DNA from: Longimicrobiales bacterium
GTDB taxonomy: Bacteria > Gemmatimonadota > Gemmatimonadetes > Longimicrobiales > Gaopeijiaceae
Direction of reading: 5' to 3'
Assembly: GCA_965202805.1 (NCBI GenBank)
Contig: OZ241869.1
Location: 1,664,001-1,728,000, forward strand
Length of the DNA stretch: 64,000 bases
Each line of letters starts with the position of its first letter. Position 1 is the first letter of the stretch. The notes under the pieces are model-generated. The model searched no databases and was not told the DNA's origin. It saw nothing but the letters and a program-made list of their open reading frames with translations. Positions 24,917 to 44,423 of this stretch are shown piece after piece. The translations under genes and the position numbers were made by a program.

Positions 24917-25576
24917 CTACTCGACCCGGAGCGCGCAAGGTCGCCAGTTTCGAGTCCAGTGTTGATCCGTTTGGACATGGTCTCTGCGCACGCTCTTGCA
25001 TACGTTGCGAGCGAACTCCGATGAAGGAAACGCCTCGGCAAGACGCATCACCACACCTTCACGTTCTCCTCCGAGCACCGACTCCTTCCCGTGCTCACCC
25101 CGGATAAAATCCCGGATCTCGCCTACGGAGCCGAACTCACCCCGTTGCAGAATCGGTACAACGGGAATGGATCGGTCGGCAGCGAAGCGCTCCAAGGCAG
25201 CCATCGACTGGAAATCTCCCCGGGCATCCCTCAGAGCGAAGGCGTAGAAGGTTTCGTTCTCCCGCACTGCCCGATATTGGATGCTGTGTACGCCATAGAT
25301 GTCTTCTCCGTACAAGTAGACATCCGGTTCGGTTACTCTCCAGGCGTGGTGCTTCTTGACCATCGCCAACCATTTGTTGTTTGCTTCCGTGCCCACGGAG
25401 CGTCCGTATATCTTGCCACGGTGGATGAGTACGTTGCTTCCATCGAGCTTTTCCGTCACGACCACTGGGCACCCGACGAAGCGGCGGGGATCCCGATGGA
25501 CGGAATCGCCGCGACCAATGGCCGGAGAGTACGGCCAGTACGGGGTGCGCGGATACTTCAGCCTACCGGGAAGCAT
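24917..25576 (-). CDS. ATP-dependent RNA ligase family protein (Rnl2-like nucleotidyltransferase)
   Basis: KYPRTP, motif I TEKLDGSN, YGE, FYAF, REGVV, KSVR. Confidence 0.88.
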   Translation of the reverse strand: MLPGRLKYPRTPYWPYSPAIGRGDSVHRDPRRFVGCPVVVTEKLDGSNVLIHRGKIYGRSVGTEANNKWLAMVKKHHAWRVTEPDVYLYGEDIYGVHSIQYRAVRENETFYAFALRDARGDFQSMAALERFAADRSIPVVPILQRGEFGSVGEIRDFIRGEHGKESVLGGEREGVVMRLAEAFPSSEFARNVCKSVRRDHVQTDQHWTRNWRPCALRVE

Positions 25577-26078
25577 CGTCAGCCCGAGGTGTTGCTCTTC
25601 GTCGAGTTGAATGCTGAGGGCAGAGTTGTCGCACTCTGACTCCCAAGTCGTCAGTCAGTGCGCGATGTTCGTACCAGTCCGAATCGACCGCATTCACAAC
25701 TACGGCCTCAGCCTTCACAGCAACAGCCAGGAACTTCGCGTCCTTCTTGAGGTTGTTCGGAGGCAGCACCGGATCGTCGAAGTCCCTTCCTTCGCTGTCT
25801 CGGGGTTCAACCTGAACCTGGCGCACCTTTTCTTCATTGTACATGTTCTGCCATAGGTATTTGTAGAACGCTGAACCCGGCATTGGTGGACCGTCGTGAT
25901 CCGTCATCCGTCCATATTCGCCCATGATGAGCCGCTTGTCGTCGACGCAGACCACGCCCTCACGCTGAAGCCTGGCGAGTTCACCCACACAGCTGAGCCG
26001 GCAGTCCATTGCCGCGTGCGTGGCCAAGCCGTTGGCAACGACAAGAACATTCGTGTCCACTACTGTCCTATCCGCCAT
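25563..26078 (-). CDS. PIN-like protein
   Basis: VVDTNVL..EY..DAKFLAVA..DSDW acidic pattern. Confidence 0.7.
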   Translation of the reverse strand: MADRTVVDTNVLVVANGLATHAAMDCRLSCVGELARLQREGVVCVDDKRLIMGEYGRMTDHDGPPMPGSAFYKYLWQNMYNEEKVRQVQVEPRDSEGRDFDDPVLPPNNLKKDAKFLAVAVKAEAVVVNAVDSDWYEHRALTDDLGVRVRQLCPQHSTRRRATPRADDASR

Positions 26079-27504
26079 TCGACGCATCTTCCTTTTTTCG
26101 TCGCAGGGACGCCGAACTTATTGCGGCAATCTCTTCCATCTCGTTTCCGAAGAACTCGTCCGGCCAGTTCTCGATTTCTCCCCATCGATTCAGCTTCAGA
26201 TCTTCAAGCTTGCCTATGCCCTTCGAGATCGACGAGAAATAGAGATAAACATCTTCTGAAGAGACTGTAAAGGGAAATGAGGACCCTTTTCCTGGAACAT
26301 GAATCTCCCCTTCGGCCACGCGCCGCTGAAGCCGTTGCAACAAGTGCTGGCTATGCGACTCTACAATGATCTGAAGCTTCCGCTGTTTCGCAACACACAG
26401 GAACAAGTCCGCTAGGCGACTTTGCACAGCCGGGTGCAAGTGGATTTCGGGTTGTTCCAGCAGGACTATGGAATCCTCTGGAACGTAGTAGAGGAGAACG
26501 AGCACCGGAAGAACCTGGGACACCCCGAATCCTACATCCGTAAGAGTAGTCGATGCCTTGGACGAGTTGGCGGTCACGCGTGCTTGATAAAGGTTGGATC
26601 CAGTGCCAATCTCCTTCAGGGAAAAGTCATCGATCAACCCGAGCTCTCTGAGCCAATGCGCAATGATTCCCTGGAACGGCTGCTGCCAGGCCTTTTTCTT
26701 GAGCTGACGCTTCTCTCCCTGCGCCGTAGCCGCCAGAATGGCGTCGATGGCTCGCTCACCCCGGGGTCCGACATCGGCGGGGCTGGCGCCACTCCAATAG
26801 TACTGGCGCTGCGGATACTCCCTGAGCGGACCAAGATAGTATATGCGGTCCATCAGGTCTTCGTAGGCGAGTTCCAGATCGCTGAGAAAGTCGGCGTTCT
26901 GGTAAGACCACTTGATCTGCTGGGGAAACGAATGCGTCTTGACAGGAGGTGGAATCCGAGCGAACGGACGACCCTGGATACGCTTCAGGGCGAAGTCATG
27001 GTGCTGGCTGCTGATCTTGAGATCGTACGCACGTTTCCTGCCTTCGCCAGGCCCGGCTTTCAGCGTGAAGGACGAGTCGCCAAAAAGATAGGTCAGGCTG
27101 CGTGTAAAGAGGGTAGATGAGTGGCCGGAGTCGGACAGGCCGATCGCGCAATGCGTATCCATCTCCCGGCCTGCGAACTCAACTGGCCGTCCATCGGCGG
27201 ACTGGCCGCTGATCTTTAATCGGGTCGGCAGATGCCAAGCCAGTTTCCAACTGATCCTGGCGGTCGTTTCACGGCCATGAACCACCTCGGAAAAGCTGCC
27301 GAGGTTGGCAAGACTCTCTGGACCTCCGAAGTCCAGCACGATGCGCCGGTCAGTCGCTTCACGGGTCTGCTTCAGCAGGAGGAGGAACTGAATGAGGCTG
27401 CTCTTCCCTGCACTGTTGGCACCGAAGATGCCGGTGACGGTGGCAAACCGGACATGGAGCGCCTTCCATGCCTTGAAGTTTGTTAGCCGCAATCGTTTGA
27501 TCAC
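26068..27504 (-). CDS. Soluble ABC/AAA_21-type ATPase with a DUF3696-like C-terminus
   Basis: NFKAW, GANSAGKS, DVGFGVSQ, LLEQPEIHLHP, ESHS, GEIENWPDEFF. Confidence 0.9.
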   Translation of the reverse strand: MIKRLRLTNFKAWKALHVRFATVTGIFGANSAGKSSLIQFLLLLKQTREATDRRIVLDFGGPESLANLGSFSEVVHGRETTARISWKLAWHLPTRLKISGQSADGRPVEFAGREMDTHCAIGLSDSGHSSTLFTRSLTYLFGDSSFTLKAGPGEGRKRAYDLKISSQHHDFALKRIQGRPFARIPPPVKTHSFPQQIKWSYQNADFLSDLELAYEDLMDRIYYLGPLREYPQRQYYWSGASPADVGPRGERAIDAILAATAQGEKRQLKKKAWQQPFQGIIAHWLRELGLIDDFSLKEIGTGSNLYQARVTANSSKASTTLTDVGFGVSQVLPVLVLLYYVPEDSIVLLEQPEIHLHPAVQSRLADLFLCVAKQRKLQIIVESHSQHLLQRLQRRVAEGEIHVPGKGSSFPFTVSSEDVYLYFSSISKGIGKLEDLKLNRWGEIENWPDEFFGNEMEEIAAISSASLRRKKEDASNGG

Positions 27505-27599
27505 ATGCACTCTCCTGCGCATCCGGGGCGAACGGTCACGGGCAATCTAGCCCGATCCGCTGCTCTGGGGGAGCGCCATCGCGGGCCAGGGAGGGGCGA

Positions 27600-32033: not shown

Positions 32034-33020
32034 CTAAGCACGCACGCGGGCAAACAACTCCGCTCCGCTGTCACAATCGATGATCGCATCTACGACCTCG
32101 TCGAGCCGATCCGCATCCGCCCTGTCTTCCAGGATTCGCGTCAGCCGCTCGGCCGTCTCCGCCCCGAATTTCCTGGTCGCGAAACGCCGCACCAGGAGCG
32201 CCCGCTCCCTGATGCGGCCCTGCTCCAAGCCCTGCTCCAGGCCCTGCCGGACCCCGTCGCGGTGGACCTGGTCCCTCAACTCCTTCGCTCTCTCGTACAT
32301 CTCCTCGTCCTCCGTGATGGACATCATCCCCGCCAGGTCCGCCTCGGAAATCTGCCACGCCTTCGCAGCCCCCGCTACCCACGAACGCAGCGCCTGGTGA
32401 AACTCGGCGAACTCTGGTCCGCGGAACCGACTTGCCAAACCCCGCAGGATCCGCTGCAGGTTCTCCGGCGTAGGATCCCGCTCCACTATCCCGAGCGAGG
32501 TCACCAGATCCCGCGACCCGGGATCCTGCTCGCCGATCCGCTGCAAGTCCAGCAGGAGATACCTGAAGCTCGGCAGATATTGCGCCAGCGGTTCCGTCAC
32601 GGGGGCGACGAGTTCGTTGACATCCGTGGCGGCCCGCCAGCGCGGCCGACCGTTGTAGACGGCGACCGGCAGCAGAGGCGGCAGCTTGTTGCCCGGTCTG
32701 ACCTCTCCCCGGCGGATCAGCTCCTCATAGGTGAGGCAGGTGTACGTGAGGATGCGGAGCGCCATGAACGGATCGTTCTCCGACTGAAACTCCAGGAGGA
32801 TCAGCAGGTACAGCCAGCCGCTCCGAAAGCGCACCTTGCAGAGCAAATCCGATCGGCGTTGGACCAGGCCGCCGCTGATGCGATTGGTCGGGAGGGGTTC
32901 CAGTGTGTCGAAGTCGAGTTCGTCGGCCAGCCCCTTGCCCACGAAGTTGCGGATGAGTTCCTCAACCGCCGCTCGGTGGGAAAAGACGAGTTTGTAGGTC
33001 TCGTCGTGCTTTCGAGCCAA
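32034..33020 (-). CDS. Rpn family recombination-promoting nuclease (PD-(D/E)xK-like)
   Basis: HDETYKLVFS, SDLL, LLEFQS..DPFMALRIL, PVAVYNG..W, QGLEQGLEQG, RKFG; TTG start inferred. Confidence 0.92.
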   Translation of the reverse strand: MARKHDETYKLVFSHRAAVEELIRNFVGKGLADELDFDTLEPLPTNRISGGLVQRRSDLLCKVRFRSGWLYLLILLEFQSENDPFMALRILTYTCLTYEELIRRGEVRPGNKLPPLLPVAVYNGRPRWRAATDVNELVAPVTEPLAQYLPSFRYLLLDLQRIGEQDPGSRDLVTSLGIVERDPTPENLQRILRGLASRFRGPEFAEFHQALRSWVAGAAKAWQISEADLAGMMSITEDEEMYERAKELRDQVHRDGVRQGLEQGLEQGRIRERALLVRRFATRKFGAETAERLTRILEDRADADRLDEVVDAIIDCDSGAELFARVRA

Positions 33021-33170
33021 TCCAGACTCCGGCGAGGCGGGGTTCGCGTCGCGGCCAGAGGGGCGTCCTGCGAGGCTGTGAGCCCGGAGCCGCCGGTAAG
33101 TATCGGATCGTCGGCTGGGCGAATACATGGCTCGATGGGCAGTAATTTTGTAAACGGTTGCTGATACTGG

Positions 33171-33179
33171 TGTTATGAT
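33171..33179 (+). promoter_or_regulatory. Extended -10 promoter TGTTATGAT facing the structured region
   Basis: TGnTATGAT in an AT-rich patch, with TTGTAA at 33148. Confidence 0.55.
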
Positions 33180-33229
33180 ATCCGCTAAGGTTGTTGTTCC
33201 CCTATCAGTTCGTTTTTTCTGAACGGGAT

Positions 33230-34590
33230 GTAGATCGACGCTCTCGAACGCTCTCGGAGTAACTGTTCGGTGAAGGCCGTGATTGGTCTAGACCCGGACG
33301 AGGACGGAGGCGCCTTGCAATTAGAGGGTTCGGTGTCGCCGGGGTTGGTCGGGGGCCGGCTCCGAGACTTCGCCCCCATGAGCGCCCGTCTGTGCGTGCT
33401 GGGGCGTGCCGCAAGCGCACGTGTGAAACCGGGATGCATGTGCGCGGAAACGCGATTCGGACGTGCGCGTCGGCCACCGCTCATCGCGTTGTCGGGCTTT
33501 GGGTTGCACCATGGCCTCCGGGGCGGCTGCGCCGCGCCGGAACTGGAGGCCATGACCGGAGCGACCCACCTCTTGCGATGCCTGGTGTGGCATCGGCGGA
33601 GGTTGGGATGTGCACTCCATCCCAACCTCCCCGGCGGGTCGCTCCAGCCCAGCAGTCCCTACGGGAAGGTTGTTGAGCCGGATGGAACCGGCGACCACGT
33701 TCGCGATACTCGGACCGAGACCGACATCGCGCGAGGGTGCGGTCGGGGACCTGCCCGAGGGCCAGGGTGACGGCGATCCGGCGCGCCGTCCCGCATGGAG
33801 CCGAACCGGCGCAACGGCGCCTACGCCCGCAGCCGCTTCAGCGGACGCCGGTTCCCTTTGTGTTCAAAATCGTGGACGAGGGTTCGCCGCCAGTTTGAGG
33901 CCCGGCCGAAGCGCTGGCCGCCGAGGGCGCGATCATGGCTCTCGTCCAGCACAGGTCCCGGGCGCGTCACGCCGCGGACGACCCGGGCCTTGCTGGGTTG
34001 GGAAGGGGGCTCGACCCCGGCGGAGGGACGGGCGGAGTCCCGTCCCGGAGGCCGGGGGGACCGGCGCCGAAGCGGTGGCAACGCCGACCGCGCCGTCGCC
34101 GGTCACGACGCGGACTCGCCCGCGAAATCCACGGCTTCGACGGGCGATGATCGGGGGGCGGCAGGAGAACATCCGGCAACCGGCCGGGTGGACGGGTCGG
34201 CCAGGCGGAAGCCGGGCGGACTCCCCTAACCGCGAACGCTGCCGGAGCGGGGGGTTTCCGGGGGGTTCGAAGGGGGGCGGCAGCACCCCTCGCCAGAGCG
34301 CGAATGTTATACATCGCGTAGGCTGGCCTAGGACCAGTAACGGGTCCAAAGCCAGCGCTGTGGACGCCCGCGAAGAGACCGCCGAAGGGCCAAGCGGCCG
34401 GTCCTCGAAAACGAGGTCCAAGGTCTCCCGGCTTGACCAACGGCCCGAGGCACGGCGGTCGTGGTCAGCCCTTCCAGCCGCCGGTTGGCCTGATCCGCGC
34501 TCGGGCGAGGAGGTCCGGGCCAAACGTCCACCCGCCCGAAACCCGGCTGCGGACGTCAATCATCTGGCGACGAACGAAGGGTCGATGGCG
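33230..34590 (+). ncRNA. Candidate giant (~1.35 kb) highly structured non-coding RNA, family unknown
   Basis: No credible ORF; dense nested stems, GNRA/UNCG loops, G-U pairs favouring the + strand, paired termini. Confidence 0.65.
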
Positions 34591-35275
34591 TAACGCTTGC
34601 CTTGATCGGAGACCGGTCCACTACCGATTTCACCAACTGGACGAACCACGGCGCCGCATGCGGCGAGACCACGACGCCCTTCACCAGGATCCCTAGGTTC
34701 ACTGGGATGTATCGGCCTCGCTGTTCGGCGACATCCGAATCGAGCGAAATGTCAAAAACGGGCCTCGTCTGTGTGTCTGGGTCAGGGTGAATTTCCCACG
34801 GCGGGCCGGGCAGGACTGCTCGCACTTCGTCCTCGCCTCGGTATTCCCGCCGCTTGTGGAAGAGCGGTGCCCACCCGAACCTTGGCACTTGCTGTTGACC
34901 GTAGTCGATGTACTTGACCTTTCCGAACGTCACCGGCAGGCTCGCGTCGATCACGCGAAGCGATTCCTGCAAATCATGAAAGGATGTACGTATCGCTACA
35001 CCTTCCTCCCCGGCGTACGAATTCCACATAAGGCTGGATTCGTGGCCAGCTTCCGTCCAGCAACTTACCAAGGCACTTCGAGCTATCTCGTTCAGCAATC
35101 TGAGCACCAAGCGCTCCGCTTGGCGGCGAAATCCCGGTTTGCGTGGCGGTGGGTGAGCGACGAAGCCTTCGTACCTGTCCTCCATGTCGCCTACCAAGGC
35201 GAAGAAGAGTTCCCGACGCTCCACCAGTGAACAGAACTTCGCGAAGCTCAGGTAACGCCATAGCGTGGCATTCAT
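34556..35275 (-). CDS. DUF2971-like hypothetical protein
   Basis: LWRYLSFAKF..LFF..EDRYEG..SCW..ESSLMWNSY..GVAIRT..VKY..FHKR..EDEVR; start uncertain. Confidence 0.7.
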   Translation of the reverse strand: MNATLWRYLSFAKFCSLVERRELFFALVGDMEDRYEGFVAHPPPRKPGFRRQAERLVLRLLNEIARSALVSCWTEAGHESSLMWNSYAGEEGVAIRTSFHDLQESLRVIDASLPVTFGKVKYIDYGQQQVPRFGWAPLFHKRREYRGEDEVRAVLPGPPWEIHPDPDTQTRPVFDISLDSDVAEQRGRYIPVNLGILVKGVVVSPHAAPWFVQLVKSVVDRSPIKASVTPSTLRSSPDD

Positions 35276-35516: not shown

Positions 35517-36185
35517 TTAGCCTTCGCCCGCGAGATAGGCCGCCCAATCCTCCATGAGCCGCCGCCGGCGCTCGAACAGATCCGTCCGCAGGTACGCCGC
35601 CTCGACCTTGTTCTGCACGACATGCGCCAGCGCCGCCTCGACGACCTCCCGGGGATGGTCCGTCCTCTCGGCGGCCCAGTCCCGGAACGACGACCGGAAC
35701 CCGTGCGGCACGGCCGAGATTCCGCAGCTCAGGAGCAACCGCCCGGGCCGCTTTCTGTTCAACGGCTGCCCGCGCTCGGTGACGAATACGAACCGGCTCC
35801 CACCGCCCAGCTTGCGCGCCGCGTTGAGGATCTCCAACGCCCGACCGGAAAGGGGCACCCGGTGCTCCCGCGCGGTCTTCATCCGGCTTGCCGGAATCGT
35901 CCACACGCCCGCATCCTGATCAATCTCGCTCCACACCGCTCCACGGACCTCGCCGCCGCGCGCGGCCGTCAGTACCAGAAACTCGAAGGCCAACGTGTCC
36001 ACCTTCCCCGGCTTCGCCGCCCGCACCCTCGCGATGGCCGCCGCGACCTCGGCGTGAGGCAGGGCCTTGCGGTGCGTGACCACATCGTGCTGGGTGCCGA
36101 GCACCGGCAGGAGCCGGTCGCACGGGTTGTCCGTCCGCCAGTCCATGGCGACGGCCCATTCCAGCACGGCGCGGATGCGGAGACG
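35517..36185 (-). pseudogene. 5'-truncated P4-like tyrosine integrase
   Basis: TAARGGE, RMK, HRVPL, HGFRSSFRDW, LAH, AAY; arm-binding N-terminus absent. Confidence 0.88.
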
Positions 36186-36230
36186 GACAGAGGGGCCACC
36201 TCCGGATGGGCCGGAACCCCCTCCCCGTCT

Positions 36231-38585
36231 TCATCCTTCCGGCACCAGCGGCCATACGAGCGGAAGCACGGTCAGGACCACCGCCATGACCAGGAGAAAC
36301 AACGGGAATCCCGCCTTTATGAAGTCAACAAACCGGTATCCTCCGAAACCCATCACCAACAGATTGACCGGATGTCCCACCGGACTCATGAAGGCGCAGG
36401 AACTTCCTATCGCCACCGTCATCATCAGAGCCTGGGGCGAGAGCCCTTCACTGACGGCCGTGCTGAGTGCGATGGGCGACATGAGTACCGCTACCGCCGC
36501 CGTCGGCATTACCTGAGCTGAAAGAGCGGTAATCAGGAAGAGCCCCGCGACCACTGCCAGGGGACCGAAGTCCGCAATGGACCCCAACACCGCCTCGGCC
36601 ACCAGCGCAGCAGTTCCGGATTCCTGCATCGCCAGTCCCAGGCTGAGCATCCCCGCGATCAGGACCACCGCTTTCAACTCGATACACCGATAAGCCTCTT
36701 CCATGTTGAGGCAACCCGTCAGCACCATCAAAACCGCTCCAATCGGCGCCGCGACGAAGATAGGCAGAAGGCCCGAGACCACCGAAGTCAGGACCCCTGC
36801 CATGATTACGGCGCTGACGGGAGCTTTCCGGCTTCGTACCACCTCTGCTTCTTCGGTCACGACGAGGAAGTCCGGGTGTTCCACCAGGAGCGCGAGCTTG
36901 CTTCTGTCGCCATAAAGCAGAAACGCATCACCCGGGAGCAGTTTCATTTGCCGGAGCCCACTCCGGTAAATCTCTCCTTTCCGCCATATCGCAAGGATGG
37001 AAACACCGTAGTTCTCACGGAAATTGAGTTCCTCGATTGTCTTTCCCGCGAATGTCGTGCGTGGAGACAACGAAGCCTCCGCCAGGCCGACCGTGTCGGA
37101 CTCCAGTCGGCTCACATCCAGGGGACGATTATCGCCCACCGTCAATTCCTGGAGCGCCTTCAGGATCCTGAGATCCTCGAGTCGTCCCCGGAGCAGGAGA
37201 ACGTCCCCTCCCTCGAGTTTCGTATCCGGATCCGGCATGAGAAGCTCTTCATCAGCTCGCAGGATGCCCACAACCGTCAGGCCGAACGCATCGGCCAGCC
37301 GGGTTTCCGCGAGCAACTGACCGGCCAGCAGCGATTCTTCCGAGATCCTGACGCTTTGAATCCTGCGTTCCATCCGGTAGTGGGAAATCAGTTCTCTTGC
37401 CGACACCGAATGGATCGCTCCGAAGGTCTTGTCCCCCTCCAGTGCGGCAAGCCGCCCGCCTTTCGTCGCAACCAGCAGGCGATCCCCGGGAGCAAGAGTC
37501 ACTGACCGCAATCCCGTGCGATGTACCCGATCACCCCGCAGAATTGCGAGTACGTGCAGGCCACGAGTCCGGCGCAGATTCGCCCTTCGAACCGTCTGTC
37601 CGATCAGCGGTGAACCTTCTGCCAACTCCAGTTCCGCTACCTCGATGGAGGCATCCGCAATCCGCTCGAGAGCCCGATCTCTCGACTCGATCTCCAGGTG
37701 CTTCCATGCGCGCAGGCTTTCGAACCTCTCCAGGGTTCCTTCAACAACCATCTCGTCTCCCTCGCTCAGAACGAAGTCCGTCCCGGGAGCGAGGATCATC
37801 TGCCCGCTTCGTTGCACGGCCACCACGTTCAGACCCAGGGCCTGGCCCAACCGGCTTTGCTGCAGTGTCTTGCCTGCCAGAGTCGAGTTCCTGGGCGCTT
37901 TCAGCATTCCGACGATGCCACCCAGGTCGTAGAGTCCCCCCAAGTCCGCTGGAGCCGATTCCTTCTTCGGATCCCGGTTCGGAAACAGCCGCCGCCCCAG
38001 GAAGGTCATGTAAACGATTCCCGCAGCAAGCGCCGTCAACCCGACCGGTGTGAACGAGAACATCCCGAACGGCTCAAACCCCGCATCCCGCAACGCCCCG
38101 TTTACCAGGATGTTCGGCGCCGTTCCGATCAAGGTCGTCATCCCGCCAAGCAGGGATCCGAAGGCCAGGGGCATGAGCAGCTTGGATGGCGGCGTCCCTA
38201 TGCGGCGCGCCATATCCAGCACCACCGGCAGCATGAGGGCGGTGATCCCGATGTCGTTCATGATTCCCGACAGGAGGCCCACCGTGGCCATCATCACCGC
38301 GGTGAGACGGCCGACTCCATCACCCGATGCCGCCAGAACCCGTTGGCCGATGAAACGAGCGACCCCGGTCCGCGCAAGGGCTCCGCTCAGGACCAGGACT
38401 GAAGCGATTGTGATTACCGCCTCGTTGGCGAAGCCCATGATCGCCTCCTCGCCCTCGAGGATGCCCGTCACCACGAGTCCCAGCATCACCATCAACGCCA
38501 CCAGATCCACCCGGATCTTTTCGGTCACGAACAGGACCACCGCTGCTGCGAGAATCCCCCCGACTACAAGAACCTCCAGGTTCAT
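36231..38585 (-). CDS. SLC13/CitMHS permease with tandem TrkA-C domains
   Basis: PSKLLMPL, GGMTTLIGTAPN, repeated TrkA-C segments, SPVGHPVNLLV..GGYRF. Confidence 0.92.
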   Translation of the reverse strand: MNLEVLVVGGILAAAVVLFVTEKIRVDLVALMVMLGLVVTGILEGEEAIMGFANEAVITIASVLVLSGALARTGVARFIGQRVLAASGDGVGRLTAVMMATVGLLSGIMNDIGITALMLPVVLDMARRIGTPPSKLLMPLAFGSLLGGMTTLIGTAPNILVNGALRDAGFEPFGMFSFTPVGLTALAAGIVYMTFLGRRLFPNRDPKKESAPADLGGLYDLGGIVGMLKAPRNSTLAGKTLQQSRLGQALGLNVVAVQRSGQMILAPGTDFVLSEGDEMVVEGTLERFESLRAWKHLEIESRDRALERIADASIEVAELELAEGSPLIGQTVRRANLRRTRGLHVLAILRGDRVHRTGLRSVTLAPGDRLLVATKGGRLAALEGDKTFGAIHSVSARELISHYRMERRIQSVRISEESLLAGQLLAETRLADAFGLTVVGILRADEELLMPDPDTKLEGGDVLLLRGRLEDLRILKALQELTVGDNRPLDVSRLESDTVGLAEASLSPRTTFAGKTIEELNFRENYGVSILAIWRKGEIYRSGLRQMKLLPGDAFLLYGDRSKLALLVEHPDFLVVTEEAEVVRSRKAPVSAVIMAGVLTSVVSGLLPIFVAAPIGAVLMVLTGCLNMEEAYRCIELKAVVLIAGMLSLGLAMQESGTAALVAEAVLGSIADFGPLAVVAGLFLITALSAQVMPTAAVAVLMSPIALSTAVSEGLSPQALMMTVAIGSSCAFMSPVGHPVNLLVMGFGGYRFVDFIKAGFPLFLLVMAVVLTVLPLVWPLVPEG

Positions 38586-40645: not shown

Positions 40646-42214
40646 ATGCCTCCACCACCGAAATTGGTATCTCTCAACATTTTTGCCATCCGAGACAACA
40701 TCACCGATGTCTTCAAGGATGACTATGACAGCCATCCAATAGTTCTCGACGAAAAACAGATAGGGACACTGTATGTAAGACCGAGCAATCCCGGCCCACC
40801 AGAATGGCTACGAGAGTTCTTCGGACGGACAGTCGATCCTGACTCATTGCCGTTGTTGCTGAACTCGACCAGCGCGGCCGTTCTCATGGTAACCGTCAGC
40901 ACGACGAGGTTCGCCGTCGCATTCGGGCATGGACGATACATGCTGAATCCAACAGCCATCGAACCAAGGTTCGGACTCCGAACTGCTCTAAATGGTGTCG
41001 ATGTCGATCAGGTACGGTCCGTTGACCGCAAGACACTCGACGCGGTATCCATGTACACTCGTGAACAGGCGAGTAGAGAATCCAGTTTCAATACGTTTGA
41101 CATGAACGTGCAGCGGGACCTATTGCGCTCCATCACCGGTAGGATGCTAGACGAGAATCTAGGCCTTACCGTCACGGGCAAGGATGCATTCCTGATCAGG
41201 TCCCGCGTAACGCTTCATACACTACTTTCCAAACTCGAAGAGTGGCACCACCTAAGCCAGGAAGATACATATAGGGAACGTTTCCCTTGGATCAACAACA
41301 TCGCCGAGATATCTGACAAAGCAACAAGAGATCGTTTGGATGATCGGTTAGTCGATATGCTCCACAGAGACGATACCGAGAGGATTTGGCTGGCACCACC
41401 CGAGATCATGTCTTGGGACAACGTGGACGGCTTCAAGTTTCGCACACCTAGAGCTGATGTCGTACCGGAATTGGATCTGCGTTCGTATTTCGAAGACAAG
41501 TATAGACCGCAAACAGAGGTAACGATCACGCAACTAAGGCGCGATAAGGTCTTTACACGGTCGAACAAGGATGATTCGGATGTTGACCGCTGGCGTGTGT
41601 ACCAATGCATTCATGCAGACATTGATGATGGAAGCGACAGATTCGTCCTGGACGAAGGCCAATGGTACCAGATTGATCCCGACTTCGCCGCCGAGTTAGC
41701 TGACTTTCGGGCTAGCTTGCCACGTACCGCGATTAGTCTCCCAGATTATGACGACGATGACGAAGCAGAATACAACGACCGCGCTGCCAAGCACTCGCAA
41801 CTACGGTTGATGGACAAGGACTTGGTGAAGGGTATCGAGGCTGAGGCGCGGAGCAGAATAGAAGTCTGCGACCTGCTTCATACTGAAGGCGCGTTCATCC
41901 ACGTTAAACGCTATAGCGGGTCAAGCACCTTGAGCCACCTGTTCTCTCAAGGTGCCGTGGCAGCAGACAACATGCGATTCAACCCGGACTTCCAAGAGAG
42001 GGTTGCGGGAAAATACCCTAACATAATCCTGTCCAATGGACGATTTGATGCCGATCGGCACGAGATCGCCTATGCGATTATTGCCAAACCAGGCAACGAC
42101 GATGTCCAACTACCGTTCTTCAGTCTCGTCAACCTGAGACTTTTCTCAAACATCATACGACGGACAGGCTACAGCAAGATCACGTTGACGATCATCCCGA
42201 ATCGTCGCGCGTAG
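40646..42214 (+). CDS. TIGR04141/DUF6119-like sporadically distributed protein
   Basis: FGHGR..IEPRFGLRTALN, DLLRSITG, GQWY, EAEYN, IEVCDL..HVKR..STLSHLFSQG, LPFFS; lower GC. Confidence 0.82.
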   Translation: MPPPPKLVSLNIFAIRDNITDVFKDDYDSHPIVLDEKQIGTLYVRPSNPGPPEWLREFFGRTVDPDSLPLLLNSTSAAVLMVTVSTTRFAVAFGHGRYMLNPTAIEPRFGLRTALNGVDVDQVRSVDRKTLDAVSMYTREQASRESSFNTFDMNVQRDLLRSITGRMLDENLGLTVTGKDAFLIRSRVTLHTLLSKLEEWHHLSQEDTYRERFPWINNIAEISDKATRDRLDDRLVDMLHRDDTERIWLAPPEIMSWDNVDGFKFRTPRADVVPELDLRSYFEDKYRPQTEVTITQLRRDKVFTRSNKDDSDVDRWRVYQCIHADIDDGSDRFVLDEGQWYQIDPDFAAELADFRASLPRTAISLPDYDDDDEAEYNDRAAKHSQLRLMDKDLVKGIEAEARSRIEVCDLLHTEGAFIHVKRYSGSSTLSHLFSQGAVAADNMRFNPDFQERVAGKYPNIILSNGRFDADRHEIAYAIIAKPGNDDVQLPFFSLVNLRLFSNIIRRTGYSKITLTIIPNRRA

Positions 42215-42274
42215 CTGCGGACAACCTCCGTCGCATCGTTGCGGCAAGTAGCGCAGGCTAACATGGACCCTGGG

Positions 42275-42804
42275 TGTACGTGTACGGTAACCACCTGACA
42301 CCCGGCGTCACCGAGATCAGGTCCTATGCTGCCTTCTTCACCTCCTTCCCGGTCGATGGTTTGCGGGTGCGGTTTCGGGGGATCTCGGCCTTGGACAACA
42401 CGTAGGGCGTCCGCCCCTCCATGCCGCGGCCTCGATGGGGTCGCCGCAAGCTGTAGGTCTCAAGATACACGTCCAGGTCCTTGCATTTCCTCGACGAGCC
42501 TCCTACTAGGTCCTTCGCCCCTTGATCCGGGAGATGCTCTTCGAGGAGCGTGCGGTGGACGCGCTCGATGAAGCCGTTGGGACTGGGGCCTCCCGATCTT
42601 CGTGGTTCGGTGCTCGATCCCCTCCAGTTGCAGGAAGAACTCGTAGAGATGCTCGTCCGGCCAACCGCAGTACTCGCGCCCGTTGTCGCCCAGGATGGTC
42701 CGAATCTGGAGGTCATGCTCCTCGGTGAGCTTGATCTCGCGCCTGAGGCCGGCCTAGCCACCCTCCCCTTCGAGGGAAATCGGTCAGGTGATTACCGTTC
42801 TACA
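42275..42804 (-). mobile_element. Internally deleted IS481-family element retaining both inverted repeats
   Basis: Ends TGTA..CGGTAACCACCTGAC and GTCAGGTGATTACCG..TACA; frameshifted NGFIERVHRTL..RPHRGRGMEGRTP. Confidence 0.8.
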
Positions 42805-43973
42805 CCAAACGGGTATACTTCATCACCTACTCTGATACATCTCATCGCTACAGGCACCGCGGCCGTGAGATCTTCGCGGTCAGCCCGACTCATATACTTA
42901 GATTCATCATCAGTTACTAGCTTAACTGCAGATGGTTGTTCGTCTCCTTTGCGACGGAATGGAAGGATAATCACGTCGTCCAGCTGGTGATCAACGACAA
43001 TCCACTCCCATATGATGTTGTCAGCTGTCTTTACGTCAACTAGCCCACCAATAAAATCAACTCCACTGATATCCTGCTCGGTCTCGAAGTGTAGGGTTAT
43101 TGCATAATGGTTTACGAATCGTACTGACGCCCAGTATGCAAGTTGATTGAGAGAGAGCGATAGCTTGAGCGGCTCTCGAGTCAGTTCCCGAAAACGATCA
43201 ATCGGTCCTCCAAGTGGAAGGGACACACACTTATCACCCATTATCACTATCCAGAACGGAGGTTTGCGCCGGTGGTTCATAATAATCAGTGGATCAACGG
43301 CGAGGTCCAGGTCCGCAAAGTCCATGCTGCGGCAACCCTTGATGATAACCTTGTCCGGATTCATGATTTGCTTACGCACTGGTCGTAGGGCACCACTCTT
43401 GGCGTACCGATACCCCTCACTACCCAGCAGGGAGAACAGCAACAGGTAGGCTGAACGTAACCAACTTACGGACACCTTGTGTGGATTGGGTTTCCTGATC
43501 CGAAAGCGGATTCCTCTCCTCACGTCCGCATCGGTGACGTTCGTGTCGGGGCCGATTGGGAGACGAGGCAGGCGCATTGTACTACCGCCGGGAAACTCGT
43601 TTATTGACGTTGGCAGTGGTTGTCTTGCAAACTTCGTCGCCGCTGCATCATCCTTTTGACGGATGTATCCAGATCTGATGCCCCATCCGAAGAAATCCAT
43701 CTCCACTTTCGTGCCCCGTCCAGATGCGTGATCATCTCTCGCTTCTTTCTCCATCTTTGCTAGCCTATCAAGGCGACTGCCCTTGTTGTTGCAATTCGCA
43801 CATGTGAGACATACAATCTTCCCACCAAGAGTCTTGGGTGGGGCATGCTCTAACGTCACCTCTTTTCCGGACGCCACTTGCGCTTCTGAAAAGGGAATGA
43901 GGCAAATCGGACACTCGGTGTTGCCCATGTGGAATAGGCTGAGTCTGCGCTCGCGGTCTGTCTTCTTTCCCAT
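42792..43973 (-). CDS. HNH-type nuclease domain protein
   Basis: CPIC..TLEHAPPKTLGG..LTCANCNN; low GC; stop lies inside the IS end. Confidence 0.8.
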   Translation of the reverse strand: MGKKTDRERRLSLFHMGNTECPICLIPFSEAQVASGKEVTLEHAPPKTLGGKIVCLTCANCNNKGSRLDRLAKMEKEARDDHASGRGTKVEMDFFGWGIRSGYIRQKDDAAATKFARQPLPTSINEFPGGSTMRLPRLPIGPDTNVTDADVRRGIRFRIRKPNPHKVSVSWLRSAYLLLFSLLGSEGYRYAKSGALRPVRKQIMNPDKVIIKGCRSMDFADLDLAVDPLIIMNHRRKPPFWIVIMGDKCVSLPLGGPIDRFRELTREPLKLSLSLNQLAYWASVRFVNHYAITLHFETEQDISGVDFIGGLVDVKTADNIIWEWIVVDHQLDDVIILPFRRKGDEQPSAVKLVTDDESKYMSRADREDLTAAVPVAMRCIRVGDEVYPFGVER

Positions 43974-44423
43974 GCGGTGTACCACTCCCTTTTCCTTTGA
44001 GGCGTTTCCAACCCGAACATTACCTGAAAGGGAGCCAGACGGCAACTAGAGCCCGGATTTCTCAAACCAATGAAGTTCCATCGGCTTCCGTAGTATTATA
44101 AGGTGAGGTATGCTAACAACTTAGGCATTCACGTCTCCTCTGGGGTGGTTGGCCGACGGGAATCGAAATTCGGAGGCTGGATCGGTCGCGCCTCGGTCGC
44201 TCTTCGCCCAGTGTGTTCACTAGGTAGTGCCTAGCCTCGAGCGAATCCAACACGCATGTCACGTAGGGCCTTGACCAGGAGAATGGGCGTTACCTGGGAC
44301 TCCGCGCAGGTGAGGTCTTGCAGCAACCCTTGACGGCGGACAATCCCGGCCTGGTCGTCCGATCGGACGTTGCTCGGAAACAGATGAGTATGGAGGTGCC
44401 GCCGGGGCCGGAGCCTGGGCCGG

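Follow-up and report, generated by a model that had tools for sequence, protein, structure and literature searches.

A non-coding gap in a Longimicrobiales genome, probably a scar of integrative and conjugative elements, contains one structured and conserved module

What is the long tract without genes that lies between an Rpn gene and the next gene in the genome of an uncultivated, sponge-associated Gemmatimonadota bacterium of the Longimicrobiales? The tract was studied within a window of 64,000 nucleotides (nt), positions 1,664,001 to 1,728,000 of contig OZ241869.1 (forward strand), in a genome with 70% GC; the non-coding gap spans 33130-34555 of the window, and the stop codon of the next gene lies at 34556. 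The original prediction, made from the sequence alone, took the whole of 33230-34590 for a single giant non-coding RNA with an ornate fold, belonging to a new class of large RNA or ribozyme. In our opinion the gap is, with high probability, a scar left by integrative and conjugative elements, nested or decayed, in which no fewer than four non-coding modules (A to D), each recurring independently, came to lie side by side, and not one transcript or fold. Within the gap, only module B (about 300 nt) is truly structured and conserved. The parts of the gap are as follows (related genomes and individual loci are cited below by our G and L numbers; the genome of the window is called the own genome):

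33180..33281, plus strand: module A, a short repeat that lies upstream of Rpn and has further copies (84-96% identical) in the own genome (495885-495935) and in genomes of the genus
33331..33381, plus strand: sequence upstream of B common to a paralogous locus (the blastn match to G000 3537754 begins at 33331)
33377..33672, plus strand: module B, a multi-hairpin element of about 300 nt (covariance model R1, 268.9 bits)
33682..33720, plus strand: probable remnant of the start of a coupling-protein (T4CP) gene, with an ATG 13 nt past the GGAAGG that ends B
33767..33865, plus strand: module C, a short repeat with a GAACCGGCG/CGCCGGTTC hairpin and 78-84% copies in the own genome (3200718-3200809 and 3211849-3211940)
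about 33941-34375, core 33996..34297, plus strand: module D, sequence-conserved, non-coding and integrase-associated (nhmmer)
34298..34319 and 34321..34356, plus strand: two terminator-like hairpins at the 3' end of D, found by folding of the copies

The mosaic nature of the gap was shown by the way in which its matches break up. The blast search of the own genome split it into 33331-33669, 33767-33857, 34004-34364, 34005-34177 and 34201-34293, with separate partners. Matches were also found in 22 of 41 related genomes (16 of 18 within the genus), and their boundaries recurred at positions 1-102, 316-490, 588-686 and 816-1151 of the query. The genus-wide copy numbers of B rest on this DNA search of the 41 genomes. 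In a paralogous own-genome locus, B is followed by D after 79 nt and the middle of the gap is absent, an arrangement also found in L032 and L023, and in G006 B is followed by its coupling-protein gene and lies about 4 kb from a D fragment. Module A recurs partly together with the 5' end of Rpn in G006 and G012, and module C occurs also within the composites of G005. Because the modules recur with their own boundaries and differing neighbours, there is no single co-linear conserved unit. An assembly artefact as the source of the mosaic was ruled out, since independent unitigs of two sequencing runs, which may derive from the source sample, tile 32900-34900 with 0-2 mismatches per piece and bridge the module junctions at single-copy depth, the repeated parts having a raised depth.

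On both sides of B there are possible remains of coding sequence. In the alignment, the stop codon of a gene family (p305, described below) that precedes B in intact loci falls on the TGA at 33379-33381; in those loci the upstream open reading frame (ORF) ends at the start of B. Judged from this alignment, 33331..33381 may be a coding remnant. Downstream of B, 33682..33720 reads MEPATTFAILGP, to be compared with M(K/R)xxTLxIIGAA, which opens the ORFs of at least 495 amino acids after B in seven loci. The window sequence diverges further downstream, and a 5-nt indel among copies disrupts the frame; the stretch is best described as a probable remnant of a coupling-protein gene start. Otherwise the gap contains no genuine genes, as had been supposed. 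It is considered non-coding because the codon-phase GC is flat over about 33000-34520, where the flanking genes display a strong third-position GC signal, and because no Pfam family was found in the four long shadow ORFs tested. A coding reading is further excluded by single-nucleotide indels among the copies of D, and between 33670 and 34000 tblastx gave low-complexity noise only.

A giant ribozyme-like RNA would be a major find if true. The reading does not survive, is rejected here and retains in our estimate only a very slight probability. All eleven complementary string pairs quoted in its support are present at their coordinates, and the 13-bp hairpin and the loops named with them were found there too. 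The region is non-coding, has no Rfam match and hence would be new; B and D are frequently neighbours in the same orientation; and the whole 1361-nt region folds below its shuffles (z -4.0 on the plus strand, 30 dinucleotide shuffles per strand). A composite of the 3' half of B with C and D recurs twice in G005 and once in G014, so that this combination is not unique to the window, which speaks for a unit and weighs against our view of the gap. However, on the minus strand the stability is higher still (z -5.0) and the excess is therefore not strand-specific. It also derives mostly from one palindrome cluster: nested helices had been described over nearly the whole region, and just one of 21 windows of 200 nt, 33500-33699, was beyond chance (z -8.45 on the plus and -9.20 on the minus strand), the other 20 ranging from -2.67 to +1.71.

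The long-range helices behave in the same way. Perfect inverted k-mer pairs in 33230-34590 numbered 598 versus 580±36 in 200 dinucleotide shuffles for k=6, 66 versus 51±11 for k=8 and 23 versus 14±5 for k=9. When 33500-33650 was removed, the k=7 and k=8 pairs were slightly over the shuffle mean and the k=6, 9 and 10 pairs under it, and the observed counts were matched or exceeded in 68-152 of the 200 shuffles. The terminal and long-range helices of 6-9 bp therefore represent the chance yield of a sequence with 70% GC. The two outermost helices have their 3' partners (34556 and 34581) inside the neighbouring protein gene or at its stop codon. The ATGAGCG/CGCTCAT pair, as judged by eye in the alignment, is not kept in other copies of B, and the TGGACGAG/CTCGTCCA pair has an uncompensated change in G005. 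Finally, the segments joined by the proposed closing and long-range helices belong to independent modules, which are found apart elsewhere, with other partners and at distances of 79, 137 or 335 nt or of about 4 kb. None of the listed sequencing runs that contain the region is recorded as an RNA run, which is evidence in neither direction. In DNA of 70% GC, long lists of 6-9-bp helices are uninformative, and repeat mosaics can look like ornate RNAs.

The original observation is confirmed in part, and its interpretation is likewise supported in part. Rfam covariance models matched nothing in the 64-kb window at gathering thresholds, and a relaxed search of 33000-34800 (E up to 10) gave five junk matches (E 0.37-8.1, 13.6-19.5 bits against cut-offs of 42-87). 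This agrees with the novelty of the structured part, B. The homologues exhibit compensatory changes in B and in the two 3' hairpins of D, and the region splits into separately recurring pieces. The window tract resembles the large ornate RNAs GOLLD, ROOL, OLE and HEARO in being long, non-coding, situated in mobile DNA and rich in GC-rich hairpins; it is unlike them in consisting of separable modules and in having no match at the gathering threshold. The presumed extended -10 element near 33171 was not supported, as a consensus scan detected no promoters of the sigma-70 type. The setting in an integrative element proved correct, being indicated by a truncated P4-type integrase and a low-GC tract, and it was only the single RNA or ribozyme of about 1.35 kb placed in it that was not substantiated.

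Module B is a genuinely structured, conserved element without an Rfam family. Its structure was mapped by hand on the window copy and turned into the covariance model R1; RNAalifold on a plain MAFFT alignment or on the wide model alignment gave partial structures. Evident compensatory changes are seen in the alignment of 27 copies. With the model, seven places were detected in the own genome; in the loci examined it gave 33 hits, which were aligned. In this alignment 83.0% of the cells are paired, versus 36-43% with slid partners; the percentage is inflated in favour of our reading, as the structure was derived from the window copy, which does not affect the both-side changes. Such changes occur in 28 of 58 pairs, and 134 cells are changed on both sides versus 59 in shuffles and 19-50 with slid partners, neither value being reached in any of 500 shuffles. 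Compensatory variation is strong in five of the seven helices. The conserved part includes helices 33510/33545 and 33558/33636 and the 13-bp hairpin at 33598-33630 of the original prediction.

The architecture of B is one of nested inverted repeats, in which a 10-bp helix closes a domain with two hairpins. Segment 1 of the element is complementary to either segment 2 or segment 3 and covaries with both. Hexamer classes, GTGC(A/G)C, GGACA or GTACA depending on the copy, co-vary at four sites, three of them direct (one being the loop of the 13-bp hairpin) and one inverted. The direct hexamer repeats are kept even in those copies in which the inverted site is non-complementary, and in this respect they resemble a set of protein-binding sites. 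Many of the mismatches had been described as G-U on the plus strand, which does not hold for the real helices: the window copy has 57 Watson-Crick pairs and one G-U pair among its 58, and over all pairs of the alignment G-U and A-C mismatches are about equally frequent (64 vs 66), as they are in the well-supported pairs (27 vs 34) and in the seven operon-embedded copies (17 vs 13).

A pattern search of metagenomes with the closing helix of B gave at least 124 stretches, and 80 loci were fetched. True B was confined to 14 strong hits (at least 140 bits) in 10 of these loci. In 54 of the 80 (L145-L224; e.g. L145:389-487 and L148:389-489) we observed palindromic elements of 75-80 nt that are unrelated to B, whose inner arms correspond to both 10-mers of the closing helix of B and whose outer arms reach a further 12 nt and covary. 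No Rfam match was obtained for these palindromes. One subfamily lies between the 3' ends of ordinary genes, like repeats of the repetitive extragenic palindromic (REP) type.

The gene context of B is that of a transfer system. In intact elements B fills the stretch of about 300 nt that separates a putative winged-helix protein gene (the p305 family) from the coupling-protein gene in a type IV secretion operon. The order there is TrbL/VirB6, VirB8, p305, B, coupling protein and VirB11, and TrbI, MobC/NikA and ArdC lie close by; the own genome has such an intact copy at 2036781-2041228. B begins at the p305 stop codon, and 7 of the 27 copies end 12-15 nt ahead of an ORF of at least 495 amino acids; in the own genome this ORF encodes a coupling protein of 680 amino acids with domains of the TrwB/TraG type. 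The other 20 copies are followed by the gene of a second type of tyrosine integrase, a GC hairpin or another, convergent B. One orphan copy abuts a relaxase gene of the MobA/VirD2 type (L119). The sequence TTGAC at the 5' end of B was rejected as a promoter element, since the TGA within it terminates the upstream gene and the consensus scan found no sites.

The p305 family (262-398 amino acids, the 262-residue forms being truncated; e.g. L138:570-1505, which equals own genome 2037464-2038396) always precedes B. No significant match to p305 was found in Pfam or NCBIfam. Its predicted structure is poor (mean predicted local distance difference test, pLDDT, 62; predicted template modelling score, pTM, 0.44), and the N-terminus has a weak winged-helix similarity to MarR-like proteins (Foldseek, best E 0.025). 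The family is a candidate for a new accessory protein of these transfer systems.

Two further arrangements were observed around B. The second integrase type, in which Pfam recognizes the catalytic domain only, adjoins copies of B in the own genome (3213807-3215392 and 1109251-1111112) and in L117, L127, L134 and L135. At 3214108 the coupling-protein gene seems to give way to this integrase gene past its first 20 bases or so, as if these elements integrated at the junction of B with the coupling-protein gene. Convergent pairs of B about 100 nt apart, with a common GC-rich hairpin, are present in L119:2090-2791, L128:2382-3087, L135:2375-3081 and L117:2463-3167.

Whether B acts as DNA or as RNA is a more delicate question, and comparison of the copies places a DNA-level cis site slightly ahead of a messenger RNA leader. 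As DNA, B would be a protein-binding, hairpin-forming cis site of the element, of the type of an origin of transfer (oriT) or a recombination site, and the adjacent winged-helix protein p305 would be a candidate for its binder. The DNA-level site is favoured because G-U is not in excess over A-C and because a hexamer co-varies at four places; the winged-helix N-terminus of p305, itself weakly supported, also speaks for it. The position in the VirB6-VirB8-...-VirB11 transfer cluster and the conserved nested inverted repeats are as expected of an oriT. B shares with oriT sites and with the single-strand promoters of plasmid leading regions its nested inverted repeats, its repeated short motifs and its place beside a coupling-protein gene; its orphan copies lie near relaxase or integrase genes and its mismatch pattern is symmetric. 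B differs from typical minimal origins in being longer and more branched, and no nick site or cognate relaxase was recognized for it. A transfer origin is usually expected near the MobC/NikA accessory gene, which lies about 9.5 kb from B in the own-genome element, and two units consisting of an integrase and a relaxase have no B at all; these facts weigh against a transfer origin. Against the DNA-level reading in general stands the branched form of B, since a 10-bp helix around a two-hairpin domain is more characteristic of RNA than of the transfer origins known so far. The fixed orientation of B upstream of the coupling-protein start, with a ribosome-site-like GGAAGG at its end, fits a messenger RNA leader, and the alternative pairing of segment 1 could be an RNA switch. 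Moreover, the symmetry of G-U and A-C could merely mirror drift in dead copies.

According to the alternative view, B would be an intercistronic leader RNA of about 300 nt whose alternative pairings control read-through into, or translation of, the coupling-protein gene, and the orphan copies, including that of the window, would be relics or free-standing small RNAs. We regard this pair of propositions, taken together, as a serious possibility that nevertheless falls short of being probable. It would account for the operon orientation of B between the p305 stop and the coupling-protein start and for its terminal hairpin and GGAAGG, with the short distance to a start codon in the seven of 27 copies mentioned above. 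It is also consistent with the compensatory base pairing, with the covariation of segment 1 with both of its partners and with the GC-rich, terminator-like hairpin that follows some copies. On the other hand, the strand-specific wobble expected of a leader is missing even from the operon-embedded copies, the window copy is almost purely Watson-Crick paired, the direct hexamer repeats persist where their inverted partner is lost, and the convergent pairs leave no space for a regulated gene. A documented parallel is the long, structured zipper-type attenuator reported from conjugation-operon leaders of pLS20-family plasmids (PMC13401043). B is similar in being a long, multi-helix, non-coding element with alternative pairings inside a conjugation operon; it differs in lying between two internal genes and not ahead of the first gene, and in having no G-U bias as expected of RNA. 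The plasmids are Gram-positive and the host of B belongs to a Gemmatimonadota lineage; the likeness seen is one of architecture. A bolder version, which we consider doubtful, is that B, possibly read through into an abutting D, constitutes a novel class of structured RNA of large size (300 to about 750 nt) that is specific to conjugative elements of Palauibacter-like Gemmatimonadota; it would gate the expression of the coupling protein via covarying alternative helices, with the hexamer as the RNA site of an element-encoded protein.

Whichever level it acts on, B stands for a family of structured cis elements, specific to the lineage and situated in type IV secretion operons, which the conserved integrase-side module D accompanies. 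With its strong covariation and lack of wobble bias, it offers a testable case for distinguishing RNA-level from DNA-level structure. To our knowledge, the mobile elements of uncultivated sponge-associated Gemmatimonadota are essentially undescribed, and B could serve as a marker of conjugative or mobilizable elements, and of what remains of them after decay, in these metagenome-assembled genomes (MAGs).

Module D was found by nhmmer in 36 locus copies in the loci examined. A 23-mer of its core occurs in 53 genome-contig loci, the titles of which are nearly all Longimicrobiales or Gemmatimonadetes MAGs, including Candidatus Palauibacter. The core consists of long, near-invariant blocks with single-nucleotide indels among the copies and is therefore non-coding. 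In 8 of 25 loci, D has a convergent P4-type integrase gene 0.27-1.5 kb downstream, in which Pfam recognizes the arm-binding, central and catalytic domains. In the window the same type of integrase is truncated (residues 147-396), and an unrelated low-GC gene lies between it and D. In G003, G016 and G017, which represent three species, lepB is located upstream of D in the same orientation. D would accordingly be described as a conserved non-coding block that lies between an island edge and the 3' end of the convergent integrase gene and that ends in two terminator-like hairpins. The first of these folds in most of the 27 anchor-found copies (-8 to -16.5 kcal/mol, at least nine different stem sequences), the second has a conserved outer and a varying inner stem, and both vary compensatorily.

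It might be argued that D is a plus-strand RNA gene which serves the islands with P4-type integrases as their chromosomal integration target, like tRNA and tmRNA genes, and that its isolated 3' fragments are displaced attachment (att) repeats; we consider this unlikely. The 3' end of D does face the integrase gene, its other flank in the three species is the housekeeping gene lepB, the isolated fragments have a common left boundary near window 34255, and the covarying hairpins after the core look like terminators. The RNAalifold structure of the core (97.6% paired) contains many invariant G-U pairs on the plus strand, and C-to-U changes preserve the pairing; a plus-strand RNA of D is thus conceivable, a limit on our own description of it. 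However, both-side changes are limited to 3 of 53 core pairs, a value reached by 20 of 500 shuffles, and the stability of D is unexceptional (z -0.2 to -1.7). Genomes also contain several complete copies of D, every one with an integrase homologue of its own, and this fits island cargo equally well. Some of the 3' fragments have unrelated 5' parts. No same-orientation pair of island-flanking repeats was found in G010, the single genome compared by copy coordinates, in which the candidate repeat partner, L049, proved to be a further 3' part of D, accompanied by the 3' end of an integrase. D is neither tRNA, tmRNA nor RNase P RNA: ARAGORN called neither a tRNA nor a tmRNA in the window, nor in 16 loci with D or B, the alpha_tmRNA model gave no match, and the genome has its own tmRNA (529550-529902) and RNase P RNA (3561047-3561414) genes elsewhere.

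Some copies of D are interrupted. Five of 32 break off just past the first 3' hairpin into a common unrelated sequence (L018, L030, L033, L034 and L035), and in L028 (1746-2744), which is not one of these five, an IS110-family transposase adjoins D. This suggests a hot spot of site-specific insertion in D.

The locus as a whole is, on our reading, a decayed mobile-element junction of moderate interest, which would have retained cis modules and a broken integrase, its transfer genes being gone. Cis-mobilizable remnants of integrative elements keep only their cis sites, and the window is similar to such decayed elements in that non-coding modules and a truncated integrase are kept and transfer genes are not; D would correspond to their integrase-proximal edge in the eight loci named above. 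It differs in having no demonstrated flanking direct repeats or excision junctions. The window copy of B is without both of its partner genes and the integrase on the D side is truncated; for this reason the locus is probably inert, unless something acts upon it in trans. The genes around the gap are:

32034..33128, minus strand: Rpn / YhgA-like (Transposase_31) gene, the left neighbour (Pfam PF04754, E 1.6e-24)
34556..35272, minus strand: low-GC gene without a family, between D and the integrase remnant (ORF; third-position GC about 0.42)
35529..36311, minus strand: truncated P4-type tyrosine integrase without the arm-binding N-terminus (Pfam Phage_integrase, E 4.8e-15 for 35517-36167)

The left neighbour was correctly recognized as Rpn; the own genome contains 7-10 diverged paralogue fragments of this gene. 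The right neighbour had been called DUF2971-like, a designation for which neither Pfam nor NCBIfam provided a match, and no other family of these two databases was found in it. The integrase remnant is 79% identical (tblastn) to residues 147-396 of the 404-residue D-adjacent integrase of L010. The low-GC tract spans 32-47 kb of the window. Low-GC islets at 24917-27522 and 40646-44045 carry an RNA ligase gene, an AAA_15/AAA_21 ATPase gene with DUF3696 and genes of a DUF6119 protein and an HNH-like protein, possibly defence or mobile cargo. Elsewhere in the own genome, ARAGORN called a 'tRNA-Stop' with the anticodon tta at 502084-502165, and the one-piece tmRNA at 529550-529902 has the unusual predicted tag ANNHMAMAA.

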